Source: a virus | Taxonomy: Duplodnaviria; Caudoviricetes | DNA: 33,810 nt | Strand: one strand, 5' to 3' | Virus record (IMG/VR): IMGVR_UViG_3300048041_000145 | Span: 1 to 33,810 of that record | In this document: piece by piece, positions 3,845 through 16,291 of the stretch | How positions within the stretch are numbered: position 1 is the first letter of the stretch | Layout: each line of letters opens with the position of its first letter | Made by a program: the position numbers and the translations under genes | Notes under the pieces: model-generated | What the model was told of the DNA's origin: nothing | What the model saw: the letters and a program-made list of their open reading frames with translations, nothing else | Database searches by the model: none

Positions 3845-3916
3845 TGCTGGGTAGTTAGGATTTCATAATTTAACCCCCCCGTTAATATCCTTTGTCTTTT
3901 ACGAGACTACCCAGCA
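3845..3916 (+). ncRNA. Putative small structured RNA with a C-rich loop
   Basis: Perfect 11-bp closing stem TGCTGGGTAGT (3845-3855)/ACTACCCAGCA (3906-3916); inner stems AGGAT/ATCCT and TTAAC/GTTAA with a C6 loop. Confidence 0.5.
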
Positions 3917-3947: not shown

Positions 3948-4044
3948 GGGCGTTTGGTTCAATCCGGTAGAGCTAATAGGAGTCACTGGCTTTCTAGAGG
4001 TTATACTTCTAATTGAGATGGAGGTTCAAATCCTCCAACGTCCA
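3948..4044 (+). tRNA. tRNA-like RNA with elongated anticodon arm (pseudo-tRNA or intron-containing; identity undetermined)
   Basis: Acceptor GGGCGTT/AACGTCC plus discriminator A; D arm GTTC-AATCCGGTA-GAGC; T arm GGAGG-TTCAAAT-CCTCC; anticodon region about 23 nt longer than canonical. Confidence 0.6.
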
Positions 4045-4050
4045 TCTTTA

Positions 4051-4123
4051 GGGAGTGAAGTATCAATGGTGATACCCCCGGCTCCAGACCGGGAAGAGGC
4101 GGGTTCGATTCCCGTGGTTCCCA
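4051..4123 (+). tRNA. trnW: tRNA-Trp(CCA), intronless
   Basis: Acceptor GGGAGTG/GGTTCCC (one G-G mismatch); D stem GTAT/ATAC; anticodon arm CCCGG-CTCCAGA-CCGGG; T arm GCGGG-TTCGATT-CCCGT. Confidence 0.85.
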
Positions 4124-4357
4124 CTCATAAATTAAAATAAAATTGAGTTGAATTAATCATGAAAACAAATAATTTGCAAGGATTTTGTGTGTGTGCAAGT
4201 GATCTAATCAGATATGTTTCAATGCGTTCAAAAAATAGTTATCAATTATTAATTTTTATATTTTATTTTAATAAAAATATTATAAAAAATTTTATACTGA
4301 TATTTTATTATTTATCATTATATTTAAATGTTACTATTAAAAAATTATTTTCTCTAT

Positions 4358-4440
4358 TGCAAAAAGATGGTCCCCAAGATGGTCCCCATCTTACACAAAA
4401 AAAGGGAGATGGTCCCCATGTTGGTCCCCATCTTTTTGCA
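4358..4440. repeat. Iteron-like repeat element (candidate origin or operator)
   Basis: TGGTCCCCA x4 (4368, 4380, 4410, 4422) enclosed by a perfect 13-bp inverted repeat TGCAAAAAGATGG/CCATCTTTTTGCA; a very AT-rich tract (about 4229-4357) lies next to it. Confidence 0.75.
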
Positions 4441-7449: not shown

Positions 7450-7704
7450 TTGAACTTATCATTAATTTTATTTTGGTTTGCGTCTTTTTTATCTCTTTTA
7501 GGTGCTTATTGGATAGCTGAAGGTAATAAAGCAGGTTTTTTAGTGTGGTGTTGCAGCAATCCATTAATTATATTGCAGACTTATTTATCAAATTCATGGA
7601 ATCTTGTTTTTTTATATATTATATTCTGGATTTTAGCTGTAAGGGGTTATACTAAGGGAAGTGTTAATATTGGCGCGAGATGGACTTCATTTTTTGGAAA
7701 GTAA
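7450..7704 (+). CDS. Small 3-TM membrane protein, PnuC-like half transporter
   Basis: Three hydrophobic helices; W...SLLGAYW...GFLVW..SN...Y...AVRGY resembles PnuC-like short proteins. Confidence 0.6.
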   Translation: MNLSLILFWFASFLSLLGAYWIAEGNKAGFLVWCCSNPLIILQTYLSNSWNLVFLYIIFWILAVRGYTKGSVNIGARWTSFFGK

Positions 7705-8410
7705 AAAGAATAGGAATATAATCAAGTCAATGGTTAATAAAAAAGAAGTAAATAATTCAGAGGTGGAAAATGTGGGAAAAGAATTAAATCCTCAGGAATG
7801 TCCGATTTGTGGTGGAGTTAAAAAATCTAATTGGGAAACGTGTATGGAGTGTAAGGAAAGGGAATTCAGGAATTTATTTGATGTTAAATTAAAACCTTTA
7901 TTCGGTGAATATGATGAAATAATTACAAGCTTGATTAAAAGCCAGATTGACAAGCCAGTAGGTTATATTCAAAAGTTAACAGCGTTTCTAATTGATAATA
8001 AACTTTTAAATGTCCGTAGAGATGGTAATAAAAATTATTATACTTTACCTGGAAAAACTGTCGCGGAAGAAATTTCAAAACCAGTTGAAGAAATTAAGTC
8101 TAAAAATAGACCTATTGAATCACCAAAAACAGTTGCAAATACACCAGACCATAGAACTTATGCAGATCCTGAAAATACTCCTAAGACTACTACTCAAATT
8201 CTCCTTATCACTGAATTATTACCAAGTCTTATCAATGCTGCCTTGATAACGATAGATCCTGAGGATAATATCTTAAAAGCTGATTTTCCTCAGCAAAAAT
8301 CATTATTGGACTTATATGAAACATTGCCGAATCATTTGAAAAGCTTAGTTAAACTCCATATCGATCAGGAAAGTACAGTTCAAAAAATTACTATTCCATT
8401 AGAAGGTTAA
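7661..8410 (+). CDS. Zn finger plus winged-helix protein (true start may be GTG 7772)
   Basis: CPICGG...CMEC; TSLIKSQIDKPVGYIQKLTAFLIDNKLLNVRRDGNKNYY is wHTH-like; GAGGTGG SD precedes GTG 7772. Confidence 0.65.
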   Translation: MLILARDGLHFLESKKNRNIIKSMVNKKEVNNSEVENVGKELNPQECPICGGVKKSNWETCMECKEREFRNLFDVKLKPLFGEYDEIITSLIKSQIDKPVGYIQKLTAFLIDNKLLNVRRDGNKNYYTLPGKTVAEEISKPVEEIKSKNRPIESPKTVANTPDHRTYADPENTPKTTTQILLITELLPSLINAALITIDPEDNILKADFPQQKSLLDLYETLPNHLKSLVKLHIDQESTVQKITIPLEG

Positions 8411-8437
8411 AATCTAATTTCTTTAGGGGCGGTGATT

Positions 8438-8902
8438 ATGATAGATTGTAATACAGATCCGGGAAGACCTGTAGGTATGTTATTAAATTTATATAAAAAT
8501 CCACAAAAAGGGGAATCTAAAAAACTTCAAGAAGATGCGAAACAGCAGCAGAGGTTATATGAACGGTTGAATTATGTTAATTATGTCGCTGAGGAGTTGA
8601 ATATAAAGAATCACAGAAAAAGGATTAGACATATCATTAAAAATTTGGATAGTTTGAATGATTTATGTAAGCGTTGTAAATGGCAGACAATTGTAATTGC
8701 TATTGCTTTTTATGTGAAATGTTATTATCATAATTGCAAAACTAGCCAGATACATAGATATAAAGTATGTAGGGAGAATGATTTAACCCTTTCCACTTAT
8801 TCTATGATTGTTACACGCTTGGCTGCTCAATTCCAGACCAATATATACTTATCCCCACTGTGTCCTACAGAGAAAGTAAAGAACAGTTCAATGTTGATGT
8901 AG
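8438..8902 (+). CDS. Protein resembling a TFB/TFIIB cyclin-fold repeat
   Basis: NYVAEELNI...RHII...LCKRCKWQTIVIAIAFYVK resembles the TFB core repeat pattern (..L.L......IY......L..GRS.E.IVAA..Y); GGTGAT SD before ATG 8438. Confidence 0.5.
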   Translation: MIDCNTDPGRPVGMLLNLYKNPQKGESKKLQEDAKQQQRLYERLNYVNYVAEELNIKNHRKRIRHIIKNLDSLNDLCKRCKWQTIVIAIAFYVKCYYHNCKTSQIHRYKVCRENDLTLSTYSMIVTRLAAQFQTNIYLSPLCPTEKVKNSSMLM

Positions 8903-8909
8903 TTTTCTC

Positions 8910-9368
8910 ATGATAAGCTTATCAAAATTAAAGGGGGACATTACACCCCTTGGACATGGTGGAATGCAAACAGTTGGAAACAAACCTAAACATCACTTTA
9001 AATATAACCATGAATGGTTAAAAAAAGTGTTAAATAAGGAATGCCCCGATTGTGAAGAACAGATGACTAAAAAGGGCATTATAAGAAGCTGTACTAATTG
9101 CACATTGAAAATATATGGAAGCCCCATGCTGGTAGCTTATGATAAAATAACCATAATAAATCCTTATTACCTCGTAACTAAAGACCACTGCCCAGATTGT
9201 AATGGAACAGAATTTGAAGAAATATATAAACATGGCAACACTGTTTGTAAAAGCTGTGGATTGGTACTCGCAGGACCTGCTGACAATGATATTATATATC
9301 CTTGGCATTTGAATTTCTATGACACTGAACCCAAAAATCAGAAGAAAGTATTTATACAAAAGAATTGA
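8910..9368 (+). CDS. TFIIB-type zinc-ribbon protein (two Zn ribbons)
   Basis: CPDCNGTEFEEIYKHGNTVCKSCGLVL matches the TFIIB Zn ribbon; a second CPDC...CTNC lies upstream. Confidence 0.75.
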   Translation: MISLSKLKGDITPLGHGGMQTVGNKPKHHFKYNHEWLKKVLNKECPDCEEQMTKKGIIRSCTNCTLKIYGSPMLVAYDKITIINPYYLVTKDHCPDCNGTEFEEIYKHGNTVCKSCGLVLAGPADNDIIYPWHLNFYDTEPKNQKKVFIQKN

Positions 9369-9529
9369 CTTTGACGGAACTTACGAGTTTCTTCAATTGA
9401 ATCACCATATAAGGGGGATAGGTTTTTTTTTACTACTCGCTCAACATCTTTTTTCCTATCCCCTAAACTTTTAAAAGTTTTAATCAAAAATTCACGGTTA
9501 GGAAACTGTTTTATTTAGGAGGCGGTAAA

Positions 9530-10012
9530 ATAGTTAAAGAAATTTCATTAACACAGGATAAAATTGCTTTAGTCGATGATGAAGACTTTAATTTTTTAAA
9601 CCAATATAAATGGTTTGCTAAAAAAGATTCTAATAATGTATATTATGCATGTAGAAATGGAAGTCGTTCTAAAAAACCTAGACCATATTATAGGATGCAT
9701 AGATGCATTTCTAATGCTACAGATGGTCAAGAATGTGATCATATTAATGGAGATGGACTTGACAACCGTCGCTGTAATTTAAGAATCGTAACGAGAAGAC
9801 AGAATACTCAGAATAGACATGATGAAAGGTTTAGTAAATATCCTGGGGTAGTTAACAGTAAGAATGGATTTCGTGCTGTTATTAATATTAAGGGCAAAAA
9901 TAAATATTTAGGTAGTTTTAAAAAAACCCCAAAAGGTGAAAAGAAAGCATTTGAAGCTTATAAAAATGCCGTCCATAAATTAACAGGTGAGAAGTTGATT
10001 TGTGAATTATAG
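9530..10012 (+). CDS. HNH homing endonuclease with AP2-like C-terminal domain (probable ATA start)
   Basis: The frame upstream of the track ATG 9695 encodes the conserved KEISLTQDKIALVDDEDFNFLNQYKW; MHR...DHINGDGLDNRRCNLR (HNH); SKYPGV...KYLGSF (AP2). GGAGG at 9518-9522 precedes ATA 9530. Confidence 0.88.
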   Translation: MVKEISLTQDKIALVDDEDFNFLNQYKWFAKKDSNNVYYACRNGSRSKKPRPYYRMHRCISNATDGQECDHINGDGLDNRRCNLRIVTRRQNTQNRHDERFSKYPGVVNSKNGFRAVINIKGKNKYLGSFKKTPKGEKKAFEAYKNAVHKLTGEKLICEL

Positions 10013-10019
10013 ATATCAT

Positions 10020-10520
10020 AAATTCATGGTCGGAAAACTGTTTTATTTGGAGACGGTTTTAATACATCACTTTTTAAAAAAGGGTGCATCCAAATTATTA
10101 ATTCACAGAATTTACTGGCATTTGTATAATCAAATGACTAAAAAACCCTGTTTTACATTAAAAATAGGTAATTGTGTAAATTTTTCCTTCCCTTCGGGGA
10201 AGGTTTAAACTCATCAATTCATTGATGAGATAGCTTTTTCTGCAATAAAAAGCCGATCTTAGATCACTTTGTGAGTGCTCTTTACTGCCATTTAGAGCAC
10301 CTCCTCATTTTTAAAACCCTGTATGAGAGATTAATCACCTCTGTTTTACATGCCATTATGGGGTTTTAATATTTAGTCTTACATCTGATAAACCCCCAAA
10401 CCACCTACTATTTTACCTTACTCCAGATGTAGATATGGGTTTTAAGGACTTTCTCACCCTTAAAAACCTTTTTTTTTAATTCTCATTAAATTATCAAAAC
10501 AACTTCATCAATTGATGAAA
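10020..10520 (+). ncRNA. Hairpin-dense non-coding region, candidate ncRNA(s)
   Basis: At least nine consecutive stem-loops, including C(TTCG)G at 10186-10203; G-U pairs favour the plus strand; several loops carry anti-SD sequences. Confidence 0.5.
10504..10519. promoter_or_regulatory. Perfect 16-bp palindrome TTCATCAATTGATGAA (operator-like)
   Basis: Related to CTCATCAAT-TC-ATTGATGAG at 10210-10229; about 40 bp upstream of the first late-region gene. Confidence 0.45.
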
Positions 10521-10558
10521 AATTTTTGCAAAAATATAAAACCTTTGGAGGTATAAAA

Positions 10559-11128
10559 ATGACAAAATTTGAAAATAACACTGTACAAGTGATAGGAATA
10601 GGTGGAATAGCTGCCATAGGAATTGTAGCTTTGATCACCGGAAATAGTAATATAGGTTTAGTTGTAGTTTCCGGTATTATAGGCTATCTGACAGCTCCAG
10701 CAGTTGGGAAAGCAGCCCCAGTGCTAGCAGCAGCGCTGCCAATTACACCAGTAGTTGATGAAACACCGGTAACTGATGGGGATGCATCAGATGATAATGT
10801 GGTAGTTCCAGATGCAGATTCCAGTGTAATAACAGATCCAACGATAGGTTCAACAACTGGTAATGGTGATGCAGCACAAGTTCAAACTCCAGTTGTTATA
10901 AACCCAAATGATGTAATTACACAGGCAATAAACCTTGTACAAAACAACCCAACATTACTTAATGATATAATAAATGTAGTAGGTGTCGTTTCAGGTGACC
11001 AGAACTTATTAGGCCAAGTGCAAACTGTCCTGAATAATAGTAATGGTGATTTGAAATTGATAACTAATGGAATTGCAGCTGTTAAAAATTTAATTCCAAA
11101 TGATAATACCGTTCCAGTTGGGGCCTGA
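10559..11128 (+). CDS. Membrane protein (2 N-terminal TM, acidic linker, helical C-terminal domain); holin-like candidate
   Basis: GGAGGT SD before ATG 10559; VIGIGGIAAIGIVALI and IGLVVVSGIIGYL; C-terminal domain shared with the 11255 protein. Confidence 0.7.
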   Translation: MTKFENNTVQVIGIGGIAAIGIVALITGNSNIGLVVVSGIIGYLTAPAVGKAAPVLAAALPITPVVDETPVTDGDASDDNVVVPDADSSVITDPTIGSTTGNGDAAQVQTPVVINPNDVITQAINLVQNNPTLLNDIINVVGVVSGDQNLLGQVQTVLNNSNGDLKLITNGIAAVKNLIPNDNTVPVGA

Positions 11129-11132
11129 TTAT

Positions 11133-11249
11133 TTGATATTTCTTAACTCCACATACAAATCAAATCCTTTTAAGAAATATGAAGATGATTTTAATGAATT
11201 CGTGAATGATGCATATATAAGTGATATAAAACGGAAAATTGAGGAATGA
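11133..11249 (+). CDS. Small hypothetical protein (38 aa, not in ORF track)
   Basis: TTG 11133 to TGA 11249 fills the gap between flanking genes. Confidence 0.35.
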   Translation: MIFLNSTYKSNPFKKYEDDFNEFVNDAYISDIKRKIEE

Positions 11250-11254
11250 TATTT

Positions 11255-11812
11255 ATGGTTTTAACTCAAACACAAATAAATGGATTACAAACACAATACA
11301 CTGCTATGAGTGCAGCAGCTAAAGCTAATTTTGTAACCGCAATCTCAGCGGCCGCATCACCGAATGATGTAGTTGTAGCGGTGAAAGCAGTGGAAGATGA
11401 ATTGGATGCTTTAGATTATTTAAATGATGTGATTAACAGGGAACAAGAATTAGTAGATGCATCAGGTAATACTGATGATGATAGTGATTCGGATAGTACA
11501 ACTGCAACAACTGATCCAACAGTAACAGCTGATCCGAATGTAACACCAGCAGCCGACCCCAACGCCACAGCACCAATAACCGATCCAAATGCAACTTCAA
11601 CTCCGGCTGACCCTAATGCAGCAGCTACAAGTGCACCGGATGCGACTACAACGCCACAGGCACCGGTACTGCAAGATGTGATAAATAAAGCAACCAGTGT
11701 TGTAACTGCTAACCCTGCATTATTGCAGGATATTGTTAATGTCGCAGGATCAGTTCAATCAAATCCGGAATTACTCCAGAAAATTAGTGACGCGCTTAAA
11801 TCCAACTTTTAA
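11255..11812 (+). CDS. Acidic protein with (T/A)DPN linker repeats and a C-terminal domain paralogous to 10559..11128
   Basis: TDPTVTADPNVTPAADPNATAPITDPNATSTPADPNA; QDVINKATSVVTANPALLQDIVNVAG. Confidence 0.75.
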   Translation: MVLTQTQINGLQTQYTAMSAAAKANFVTAISAAASPNDVVVAVKAVEDELDALDYLNDVINREQELVDASGNTDDDSDSDSTTATTDPTVTADPNVTPAADPNATAPITDPNATSTPADPNAAATSAPDATTTPQAPVLQDVINKATSVVTANPALLQDIVNVAGSVQSNPELLQKISDALKSNF

Positions 11813-13069: not shown

Positions 13070-13633
13070 ATGGTGAATTATAATTGGGAAACCATAAAAA
13101 GACAATATATACAGGGAATTACACCTGAAGACGGTGATAAATACTACCCTAGTTATCAAGACCTTGTAGATAAACACGGTTGCAGTAAAGGAGCTATAAC
13201 ATCACATTCAAAAAAAGACAAAGATGGACCTTGGGATAAGCAACGTGAACGATATATTGCTAAAGTTGAACGAAAAACAGAGGAAAAAAAATCTGAAATT
13301 GAAGCTGAAAGTGTTGTTGAATCTGATCTTAAATTTGAAGGTACAGGTGAAAAACTTCGTAAAGGTGTTGAATTAAAGATTGATGAATGTATAGAAATTT
13401 TAGAAAATAATGATCCTGATGATAGGAGATTTGTTAAAGCTTCTGATTTTAAATATCTTGGTGATGGGTTAAGAGATGCTCAAGAAACCATTAAAATAGC
13501 TCAAGGTGAAATAAGTGAAAGGATTAGAATTGAAACTCCTAAATCAAACGATGAACTATTAAATGATCCTGATTATGTTCAAGCCAAAAGTAAAGCGATG
13601 AATGATTATTATGCCAAAAGGAGAAAAGAATAA
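13070..13633 (+). CDS. terS: Terminase small subunit (putative)
   Basis: N-terminal HTH (NWETIKRQYIQG...SYQDLVDKHGCSKGAI...W), coiled coil, overlaps terL. Confidence 0.75.
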   Translation: MVNYNWETIKRQYIQGITPEDGDKYYPSYQDLVDKHGCSKGAITSHSKKDKDGPWDKQRERYIAKVERKTEEKKSEIEAESVVESDLKFEGTGEKLRKGVELKIDECIEILENNDPDDRRFVKASDFKYLGDGLRDAQETIKIAQGEISERIRIETPKSNDELLNDPDYVQAKSKAMNDYYAKRRKE

Positions 13634-15116
13634 CACTCCACTTGACTTATGGGATTTCAGTAAAATAGTTACCTATGGACACTGGGATCCAGTTCCACAT
13701 CTAAATGTTATAATTGAATTTATACATTATGCCCTGGCAGGTCAATTAGAAAATTTTATGTGTGCATTATCCCCAAGATTAGGGAAGTCCATGCTAATGT
13801 CGGAGATTTTCCCGGCTTATTATCTTGGTATGCGACCTTATGCGAAGGTTATACTCGTATCATATAGTGATGAATTGAGTAGACGGTTTGGAGAAAAGGC
13901 ACGTAATACATTTAAAGAGTTTGGATATTTATTTGATCCACATATTAAGTTAAGTCCAGATACACAAAGTAAAAGCCGCTGGACAATTAATGGTAATACG
14001 GGTGAATTTTATTGTAGCAGTACTAGAGGTGGAGTTTTAGGCCGCGGTGGTAATCTTATAGTAATAGATGACCCTACTAAGAATATGGAAGAGGCCCGTT
14101 CTAGTAGGCATCAAGAAGAGTTACGTTCACTATTTGATACTGCTATTACTACTAGAAAAGAGAAAGACCCTGTTACAGGTCAGAATGCTATTGTATTTGT
14201 TTTACATCAAAGATTAGATGAGAATGATTTAATAGGCATTATTTCAGAAAAAGAAGAATGGATTACTGCTGAAGAAGCACTGCCAAGATTGAGAAACGGA
14301 GAGAAGTTAGGCAGCACATGGGTTTATTTACGTTTACCGGAATTAGCTGAAGAAGAGGATATGTTAGGCCGTCTTCCAGGTGAAGCATTATGGCCTGATA
14401 AAAGAGATGAAAAAAAGTTAGCTGAAATAGCTAAAAATATTGGTGAAAGACAATTTAATGCAATCCACCAACAGGATCCTAAACCTAAACAGGGTCAATA
14501 TTTTAATGAAGATTATTTTGAAGTAATTGAAATCAAACCGACTAATGTCGTTGAAGAGATTCAATGGTGGGATTTGGCAGCTACTAGTTATCCTGATGAT
14601 ATGCCCCTATCTCAAAGAGGAGCTGCAACTGCATCGGTAAGGTTGGCATTAACAGCTGATAGAAAGCTTGTTGTAACTGACCTTCAAGAATTCTGGAAGG
14701 AATCTGAAGATGTGCAAACAGAGATAATTAACAATGCAAAAATAGCTGGTAAAGGTATTAAGCAACGTATACCACAAGATCCTGGTCAAGCTTCCAAGGG
14801 CCAAATTAAAACTTATAGCATACATTTACCTGGACATAATTTTAATGGAATAATTGAAAGTGGAAGTAAAGAAGACCGAGCCGAACCGGTCGGAAACTGG
14901 GCTAAAATTAATAAAATATATATTCTAAATAAGGATGTTTTAGCAGCTGATGACCAAACTCCAATTATTAAACGGTTTATTAAGCAATGTGCTAATTTTC
15001 CAACCGGTAAACAAAAAGATTTTGTAGATGCTCTTAGTGGAGCTTATTCTGAATTAGAGATTCCAGAAGAAGAAGAAGATGTAACCCCGTTTGTGGGTAC
15101 AGTACCGTTATGGTGA
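13602..15116 (+). CDS. terL: Terminase large subunit
   Basis: Walker A SPRLGKS, Walker B LIVIDDP, nuclease WWDLAA...GSKEDRAEPV...FPTGKQKDFVDALSG (psiM2 ORF9/Terminase_6C type). Confidence 0.95.
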   Translation: MIIMPKGEKNNTPLDLWDFSKIVTYGHWDPVPHLNVIIEFIHYALAGQLENFMCALSPRLGKSMLMSEIFPAYYLGMRPYAKVILVSYSDELSRRFGEKARNTFKEFGYLFDPHIKLSPDTQSKSRWTINGNTGEFYCSSTRGGVLGRGGNLIVIDDPTKNMEEARSSRHQEELRSLFDTAITTRKEKDPVTGQNAIVFVLHQRLDENDLIGIISEKEEWITAEEALPRLRNGEKLGSTWVYLRLPELAEEEDMLGRLPGEALWPDKRDEKKLAEIAKNIGERQFNAIHQQDPKPKQGQYFNEDYFEVIEIKPTNVVEEIQWWDLAATSYPDDMPLSQRGAATASVRLALTADRKLVVTDLQEFWKESEDVQTEIINNAKIAGKGIKQRIPQDPGQASKGQIKTYSIHLPGHNFNGIIESGSKEDRAEPVGNWAKINKIYILNKDVLAADDQTPIIKRFIKQCANFPTGKQKDFVDALSGAYSELEIPEEEEDVTPFVGTVPLW

Positions 15117-15121
15117 GTAAT

Positions 15122-16291
15122 ATGAGAGGATTCAGCACCATTACAGGTAAAAATATGATGATAAGATACATCCTGGAAAACCTCAAAACAACAGATAAAA
15201 TATTAGATGTAGGATTTGGACAAGGAGCATACGGTTACCTCCTACGACAATACGGTTACAGGAAGATAGACGGTGTAGATGCTTACCCAAAGAACATGGA
15301 TAATTGTATTAAAAAAACATATCGCAAACTATTCTTCCAGCCAATACAGGATTTTAATTTTAACTATTACGATTTAATAATCATGGGTGATGTATTAGAA
15401 CATTTAACCCTAAGTGAAGCTCAGAAATTACTTGAGAATTATATTAATAATTATAAGTGCACCCATCTACTGATAAGCATACCCTATGAGATGCCAGTTG
15501 AACCTTGGACTGATAACCATTATGAAAAACATTTACAGAATACAGTAAACAAAGCATATATAGAAAAACATTATCCTTACCTTACTTGTATTTTTGAAGC
15601 CGAAATGGATGATTATAAAGGAAATACAATCGCAATATACAAATGGAATCAAAAGGAATCATCCAGACCGGAATATGATAAATATGGTAAAATCCCGAAA
15701 ATCATCCACCAGATATGGCTTGGAAATCCCATGCCTAACAGGTTAAAGAAATACTGCCAGTCATGGAAAGAACACCATCCAGATTGGGAATATAAGTTAT
15801 GGACTGAAGAAAACCTTCCAGAGCTGCAGAATCAGGAATTATATGACAATGCTAAAACCTACGCGGAAAGATCTGATATAATTCGATTGGAAATTCTAAA
15901 GAAATATGGTGGAATTTATGTTGATTGTGATATCGAATGCAAACATAATATTGAATATTTAATCGGTGACTCGGAGTTTATTGTATGTCAAGATTTGCCT
16001 GAATGGCCTCGCTTCAAAATACCTTATTTAAACAATGCACTCATGGGATGCACCCCGAATCATCCTTTAATTAAACGATTAATTGATGAATTACCGGAAC
16101 ATTGTAATGAATATAGTAATGAGCATGTAGTTTTTAGAACCGGTCCCGGCTTTCTATCGCTTAGGTTAAGTGGTGAGGATGTTAACCGTATTGAGCATGG
16201 TGTTAAGATAAGAGGTGAACGGGTTTTTATTCATCGTTATCAGAACACTTGGGTGAATGTTGAACCGCAGCCCCGTAATTTTTGGAAGTGA
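15122..16291 (+). CDS. Fusion of a class I SAM-dependent methyltransferase and a GT32 (DXD) glycosyltransferase
   Basis: ILDVGFGQGAYG and YDLIIMGDVLEHL (MTase); KIPKIIHQIWLG, SDIIRLEILKKYGGIYVDCD, TGPGFLS (GT32/Och1-like). Confidence 0.9.
   Translation: MRGFSTITGKNMMIRYILENLKTTDKILDVGFGQGAYGYLLRQYGYRKIDGVDAYPKNMDNCIKKTYRKLFFQPIQDFNFNYYDLIIMGDVLEHLTLSEAQKLLENYINNYKCTHLLISIPYEMPVEPWTDNHYEKHLQNTVNKAYIEKHYPYLTCIFEAEMDDYKGNTIAIYKWNQKESSRPEYDKYGKIPKIIHQIWLGNPMPNRLKKYCQSWKEHHPDWEYKLWTEENLPELQNQELYDNAKTYAERSDIIRLEILKKYGGIYVDCDIECKHNIEYLIGDSEFIVCQDLPEWPRFKIPYLNNALMGCTPNHPLIKRLIDELPEHCNEYSNEHVVFRTGPGFLSLRLSGEDVNRIEHGVKIRGERVFIHRYQNTWVNVEPQPRNFWK

Follow-up and report, generated by a model that had tools for sequence, protein, structure and literature searches.

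Does a row of hairpins placed directly before the late genes of an archaeal virus act as an antisense RNA and, if so, against which messages? The stretch of DNA in which we address this question (33,810 nucleotides; hereafter, the window) belongs to the partial genome of a temperate tailed virus with hosts of Methanobacterium type. It encodes a terminase (13602-15116) in addition to portal, prohead protease, and tape-measure-like genes (Pfam), and the clade of this terminase (40-85% identity) includes a protein annotated from Methanobacterium paludis. The record consists of one 33.8 kb contig, and because an identical terminase is also recorded on a 47.5-kb contig, part of the genome is missing from the window. 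The array sits in the gap 10013-10558, with an HNH gene on one side and, on the other, the first two genes of the late cassette (10559-11128 and 11255-11812, plus strand; no family match), whose homologues also come after the array in four other genomes (G050, G081, G112, and G154). Both its position before the late genes and its terminator-like end are those of a late leader.

The surroundings of the array hold further features. The two downstream proteins are acidic and of low complexity, with few relatives and no family, and RNA contigs cover the 10559-11812 region in each of four runs. A 44-nt direct repeat (84%; 9483-9526 and 10015-10057) flanks the HNH gene, and each copy can cover a Shine-Dalgarno (SD) sequence; the HNH frame is open from 9533, with an SD followed by ATA, not ATG, which possibly reflects a non-AUG start or an inactivated homing endonuclease under hairpin control. 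An adjacent gene pair (8432-9368), the second member with a TFIIB-type zinc ribbon, precedes the array in G154 also. Elsewhere in the window, two small AbrB/MazE-like genes (276-461 and 1395-1580, minus) flank a Bro-N gene, and this stretch (276-1580) is likely a regulatory switch region. Short GATGGTCCCCA/C repeats at 4370-4433, upstream of ORF 4452, fold strongly (z -4.9) and possibly represent an origin or operator array, and a methyltransferase fused to a DXD glycosyltransferase (15110-16291) directly follows the terminase.

The original prediction described consecutive plus-strand hairpins with G-poor loops, and every feature that it listed was found in its place, including similar units at 3845-3916 and 9394-9464; the loops are indeed poor in G (3 of 87 hairpin-loop bases). 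On the plus strand, the array opens with a C(UUCG)G hairpin (h1, 10186-10203), which folds, is unconserved, and could serve as a 5' end cap or an upstream terminator; h1 is missing in G081, and one metatranscriptome contig (X9) diverges at h1 as a loose end. Two small A/U-rich hairpins follow (h2, 10210-10229; h3, 10233-10253), which are present in G081 with altered loops and for which we found neither a target nor tuning to starts. Hairpin a (10275-10307; stem 10275-10281/10294-10300) exposes a 12-nt loop (10282-10293) antisense to AAAUGGCAGUAA and carries an anti-SD tail, with CACCTCCT, which we take to be the 16S 3' end, at 10298-10305; a search for the 16S tail in the host stretches examined found none. 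Hairpin b (10311-10369) is a swappable module with the inner loop AUUAAUCAC (anti-SD plus spacer) and the 3' bulge CAUGCCAU, and AATCACCTC lies in its region (10333-10341). Hairpin c (10380-10431) consists of an 8-bp stem (10380-10387/10424-10431) that closes a 36-nt loop without G, and hairpin d (10437-10477) presents the loop ACUUUCUCAC (10448-10457) and ends in a 9-U tract (10469-10477), a combination that appears terminator-like. At the next gene (start 10559), a palindrome (10504-10519) and a 4-bp hairpin (10541-10552) over the SD form an element (10504-10561, plus strand) that is present in all variants, with six invariant pairs.

Folding of the array beats chance on both strands (0/100 shuffles each; z -4.42 for plus and -4.62 for minus). 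Folding alone therefore cannot choose the strand; the G-U exchanges and both long host matches described below require the plus strand, and on these two grounds we infer a plus-strand RNA. The array folds at -72.7 kcal/mol (296 nt) with five unpaired anti-SD sites; among 660 host non-coding windows of 250 nt, five have four such sites, and none of these five also falls below -50 kcal/mol. Stable stem-loops with exposed pairing sequence, as expected of an sRNA, are present. Rfam recognized only two tRNAs in the whole window at E<=1, leaving the array without a family, and gave 0 matches at three homologous loci. Part of 9300-11200 is held by 20 peat metatranscriptome runs from 17 studies (ten hold a small share only); six runs were compared as contigs, and array pieces occur in at least X2, X5, X9, and X6, the X2 contig (10243-10860) being identical to the G050 version. 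These contigs place the array sequence in RNA libraries and run across the U tract as far as the next gene; they are unstranded, carry no information on ends or level, and may stem from DNA carry-over. Peat RNA contigs change over to the G050 type at 11528.

A terminase profile picked out 21 of 301 family genomes at E<=1e-100, and relatives of the array were sought by pattern search and by DNA search of 314 family genomes. Homologous arrays were recovered on contigs of four host-genus genomes (G050, G081, G112, and G154). The one in G050, whose genus comprises 19 genomes, belongs to an integrated provirus with adjoining host genes, a tRNA-Thr at the junction, and an ORF that we presume to be integrase-like; it matches the window at 98.8% over 7462-11552, and the only two differences within 7466-10683 (10344 and 10393) both fall in the array. 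This 4-kb module (7462-11552) is near-identical between two viruses whose terminases are only 45% alike, which we read as a recent module exchange. G081 is a one-contig genome with a provirus at ~1.79-1.83 Mb and a diverged array without h1 and b; the G112 array retains b, c, and d, its hairpin a being longer; and the G154 array keeps a, carries a b-like loop in another stem, and has no c. Conservation among relatives was thereby borne out in these four genomes, with stems kept by paired changes and whole hairpins gained or lost. Hairpin a carries TGCCA in all four distinct variants, and its G154 stem is altered by paired substitutions; automatic alignment of the four versions gave no consensus fold, and their homology rests on manual reading. 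The outer stem of b shows G-U/Watson-Crick exchanges in G112, and the stem of d is kept in G081 and G112, with a different loop in G112. Across c, d, and the 3' palindrome (window, G112, and G081), 4 of 25 pairs are altered at both bases, a figure that comes from three sequences only and that 17 of 500 shuffles equaled; in the stem of c, 3 of 9 pairs are. The upstream unit u2 recurs in G081 and G112, and the loop core of u1 recurs in a new stem in G050. Hairpin clusters also occupy the same position in distant relatives (G001, G075, and L004), some with anti-SD loops, in sequence that cannot be aligned (L004 1153-1236; L082 6283-6733; L221, from G075, before the first late gene). In viral contigs, three pattern searches picked up 16 loci, none related to the window, and a search of a phage collection returned short HNH matches only.

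Searched as a pattern, the 5' portion of hairpin c has an exact host site in G050 and G081. This site spans +176..+211 (codons ~59-71) of the coding sequence of a host FAD-dependent oxidoreductase (460 aa; PF07992 and PF21688), over the glycine-rich motif of a protein whose only solved relative is the uncharacterised VP0956, and four blocks of the hairpin are complementary to it (10382-10391, 10393-10397, 10400-10409, and 10413-10417). It was the top site for hairpin c of the window in 1.6 Mb of G081 (-48.1 kcal/mol vs. -35.6 for the next; both strands, seeded), in energy scans that covered ~64% of G081 and a minor part of G050, and none of 60 dinucleotide shuffles that kept the C-richness did as well (mean -35.9, best -46.8). 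The G112 version scored -54.8 at the same G081 site (next, -39.3; 0/60 shuffles, best -43.5), ~6 SD beyond its shuffles; complementarity beyond chance (0/60) was thus found in two variants. As to multiplicity, one shuffle among the 60 fell just 1.3 kcal/mol short of the window score, and the scans took in more than a dozen elements. The G050 version also has the oxidoreductase as its top G081 site (-45.6) and reaches -43.7 against the orthologue in its own genome. The G081 provirus's own hairpin c gives -34.6, within shuffles and with the oxidoreductase not its best site, and the G112 version gives only -34.0 against the G112 orthologue (the G112 contig may be no more than a small co-binned fragment). 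Only one of three co-occurring virus-host pairs shows strong own-host pairing (G050; weak in G081 and G112), and this is the main weakness of the target. At orthologous sites in 14 genus genomes, energies below -43 occur only in G081 and G050 (others, -20 to -36), and the match is thus specific to the G050/G081 lineage, home of the closest provirus to the window.

The window duplex comprises 28 Watson-Crick and 2 G-U pairs, and the G112 duplex 29 and 6. All five substitutions that distinguish the two hairpins at paired positions preserve pairing, and the indels lie in unpaired linkers; note that some pair-preserving changes are to be expected, C>U and A>G being frequent transitions. With the cost of unfolding both partners counted, a net -27 to -29 kcal/mol remains, and the best of 400 random host windows reached -21. 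BLAST with the G112 hairpin returned the oxidoreductase site as best host match in the whole of G081 (E=0.022) and in G050 (E=0.14); BLAST with the window hairpin, whose exact blocks are only 10 nt, omits it. The 3' half of loop c has a 19/20 match at orthologous G050/G081 sites, which we rejected at -31 to -36 as background level. Separately, 12 exact bases of loop c (10391-10402) match the SD region of a gene that we presume to be kdpC in G081 and G050 (L307 2079-2109, L241); this match adjoins the kdpD site matched by u2 and alone is not above chance.

The unit u2 (9383-9464, plus strand) combines an anti-SD/start segment (9383-9412) with a long-loop hairpin (9412-9464). Its positions 9442-9461 are an exact 20-nt antisense of the host kdpD coding sequence (+161 in G081; PF02702), a match equaled by 1/300 shuffles by length and by 3/60 by energy; it is the best host match of u2 by BLAST (whole G081, E=9e-4; G050, E=0.07), and the G050 site has mismatches (18/19). 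The element u2up ranks the same PMT_2 glycosyltransferase start first in G081 in all three variants (-30.2, -25.0, and -29.1), and pairing with own-host PMT_2 orthologues is weaker (-24.5 in G050 and -17.1 in G112). The unit u1 (3845-3916, plus strand) stands before tRNA genes, and its loop is antisense to a generic SD+AUGAAA start; a specific target was rejected, about 100 one-mismatch matches in 77 of 201 genomes falling at unrelated genes. The two tRNA genes (3948-4124) encode Trp(CCA) and an unusual tRNA with a long arm, called as Ser(ACT), in which a C precedes the anticodon, and the G050 provirus has a tRNA-Thr(TGT) at the same place, directly after the same u1 hairpin.

According to the original prediction, these loops occlude translation starts of host or virus. 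Plus-strand antisense copies of GGAGGTG and GAGGTGA occur in the 33.8 kb only at 10298 and 10335, and the anti-SD enrichment of the array is modest: sites of at least 7 nt exceed shuffles (2 sites, P=0.013, 3000 shuffles), and pentamers do so marginally (5 vs. a mean of 2.9, P=0.09, 1000 shuffles; P=0.04, 0.25, and 0.33 in three diverged homologues). We scanned 15 elements against the -30..+30 windows of 1506 genes called in 1.66 Mb of G081 and, as controls, against six sets of recombined windows. Only three elements exceeded every control (u2up of the window and of G081, and the u2 loop of the window); none of the nine array elements had a best start-site duplex beyond all six, the site of loop c is intracoding, and no preference for starts is seen with hairpin c (z -0.7, +0.5, and +2.2), so occlusion of a start by every loop is not supported. 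Hairpins a and b and the 9383-9412 segment do pair with host starts better than their own shuffles, a comparison biased by the choice of these elements for their anti-SD. Viral starts fare no better as targets, with no strong one among 107 candidate starts in the window; the best duplexes (-23.0 for a, -20.0 for b, and -18.2 for d) were unconvincing, and a 12-nt match of 9395-9406 to the ORF 4452 start reached only -19.3.

Hairpin a does show tuning to starts, its top-20 duplex mean (-27.5) beating 25/25 shuffles that keep the anti-SD. Its start-tuning z is -3.7 in the window, -3.4 in G081, -3.5 in G154, and -1.4 in G112, and that of u2up is about -6 (700 of the 1506 starts, 8 shuffles). Hairpin a thus appears tuned to SD+AUGGC starts and is predicted to cover them, with rps15 the best single match. 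Its top start matches include mvhG-like, rps15, fwdB, mcrG, and mtrA; an aim at highly expressed genes was rejected, its top 40 holding 6-8 of 75 codon-biased genes and an anti-SD-only control holding 8. Positions 10280-10294 are an exact 15-nt antisense of the rps15 start in 5 of the 19 genus genomes, including G050, and the loop-spanning part is shared by 8 of the 19; the chance of one such 15-mer is ~0.002-0.003, or roughly 0.04 after the elements tried, and a 13-nt version also matches a second G050 start. After accessibility, rps15 is among the top 1% of starts for hairpin a, but another start ranks best; the G081 rps15 site carries a mismatch, and the a-loops of G154 and G112 cannot pair far into rps15. 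The genome-wide scan found no convincing target above shuffles for loops b, d, and u1. We leave unclaimed a phoU coding site for b, a site for the G154 hairpin a, and other single sliding-scan matches (2-4 shuffles each), and exact-pattern searches with loops c and d and the G112 a-loop gave only proviruses or control-level matches; the longest exact host match of the whole array is ordinary (P=0.92). Of the predicted sRNA cluster, the evidence supports an element that is structured, modular, and conserved, with a plus strand complementary to host mRNA; it does not support start occlusion by all loops.

We put at roughly 60% the probability that the array is a modular viral antisense RNA, a hairpin row made as a plus-strand RNA that would pair with and down-regulate host mRNAs through its open loops, each probably acting as a toehold. 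The C-rich loop c would first pair with the G-rich coding stretch of the FAD-oxidoreductase mRNA, and the 5' stem strand of c would then be displaced from its partner to give an interrupted duplex of 30-35 bp (net ~-27 kcal/mol). The u2 hairpin would act likewise on kdpD, and hairpin a would cover SD+AUGGC starts broadly, rps15 best. Pairing, which could block ribosomes, recruit a nuclease, or protect the message, is predicted to lower translation or stability of the target, and down-regulation is the outcome that we favor. The proposal is plausible because sRNAs of M. mazei and the phage RNAs c4, sar, PreS, and 24B_1 pair with mRNAs. A bolder extension, which we offer tentatively, would make the array a programmable, protein-free antisense cassette, a polycistronic RNA whose interchangeable hairpins are individually adapted to host messages and which remodels the host and drives synonymous escape in host genes. 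Its targets would be the redox flavoprotein, KdpD as K+ sensor, surface glycosyltransferases, and strong SD+AUGGC starts, and it would act in lysogeny or late infection.

These observations have to be weighed against readings in which pairing with host mRNA plays no part. The array could be a cis-acting leader of the late operon, its hairpins serving as terminators, attenuators, or antiterminators and its loop sequences being largely incidental; we hold this to be unlikely, if still a serious competitor. It lies directly before the first late genes, as do the hairpin clusters of G001, G075, and L004, it has a U tract after d and the conserved SD-covering hairpin (10541-10552), and contigs bridge it to the next gene; such a leader leaves unexplained, however, the 30-35-base host match of two diverged variants and the 20-nt kdpD match, and sits poorly with the gain and loss of whole hairpins. 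A cis role as late leader may also coexist with the antisense role. The host matches themselves could be recombination relics of host DNA, or lucky hits of many scans, in an RNA inactive there, in keeping with a match at synonymous positions specific to G081/G050, with weak own-host pairing in G081 and G112, and with the many elements tested. This we find improbable, since the helices are split by linkers whose lengths are unlike those of the target and differ between variants, G-U pairs are used, the match overlaps a covarying stem, both long matches face the mRNA strand, and -54.8 lies so far outside the shuffles.

We give little credence to loops that work not by pairing but through their shape or a short motif, mimicking the small-subunit rRNA tail or serving as decoys or protein binding sites. 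UGCCA in both a and b, AUUWAUCAC-type loops in different stems, and loops b and d without specific targets would all suit such loops; against them, no RNA-binding effector family was found among the 49 window proteins (Pfam; the genome is partial), and hairpin c and u2 would be left unexplained. Minus-strand minigenes (SD-start-short ORF) with hairpins as a by-product, an alternative raised in the original prediction, scarcely seem credible. A strong minus-strand SD+ATG does exist at a in three variants, with a 10-codon frame in the window and G081, yet 3 of the 4 codons that differ between these two change the residue, and the frames are unconserved among variants (lengths in codons: hairpin a, 10, 10, 2, and 4; c, 1 and 5; u2, 14, 26, and 10; u1, 3 and 22), on which this alternative fails.

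If the modular antisense reading is true, the array would be an RNA by which a virus regulates its methanogen host through named targets, its long-loop hairpins would be retargetable like guides without a known effector, and Methanobacterium genes could be knocked down with it as a natural scaffold; it would also imply that lowering the uncharacterised PF21688 flavoprotein family and KdpD benefits the virus. In the literature searched, which leaves most subscription papers outside its scope, we found no archaeal-virus RNA with a host mRNA target.

Among known systems, lambda pR'-6S and HK022 put are late leaders or antiterminators that act in cis on RNA polymerase and are defined without host complementarity; like the array, they combine hairpins with a U tract where early genes give way to late ones. 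For viruses of archaea, the accessible part of one report describes only host sRNAs as changing during MetSV infection (PMC9694453), and that of another lists 10,006 viral candidates (PMC10690425). As far as the accessible text of PMC5867862 goes, sRNA154 of M. mazei has two loops, one with an anti-RBS that masks glnA2, and alters the stability of other mRNAs by pairing, and sRNA41 masks ribosome binding sites. The array would share with these two the character of an archaeal, trans-acting pairing RNA; they are chromosomal, single, and experimentally shown, whereas the array is virus-borne, is built of exchangeable hairpins, has its best duplex within a coding sequence, and is known from sequence only. 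The phage RNAs P1/P7 c4, P22 sar, lambda PreS, and Phi24B 24B_1 pair with mRNAs; PreS and 24B_1 target those of the host, and c4 probably uses its loops to pair at a ribosome binding site (PMC12197685, accessible part); in contrast to the array, with its archaeal host, several modules, and longer predicted duplexes, they are bacterial, often Hfq-dependent, and mostly one RNA with one seed. TIGR-Tas (PMC12045711) and VIPR (10.64898/2026.04.26.720920) are, in the portions available of both sources, viral guide arrays with target-matching units. The array differs from them in that periodic repeats are absent (judged from its sequence, the stems differ in sequence and spacing), no RNA-guided effector family (Pfam) was found beside it among the 49 ORFs of this partial record, and its G-U pairing points to RNA targets. 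The novelty would lie in a modular viral array with coding-sequence targets, whose mode of action would resemble that of a trans-acting sRNA.
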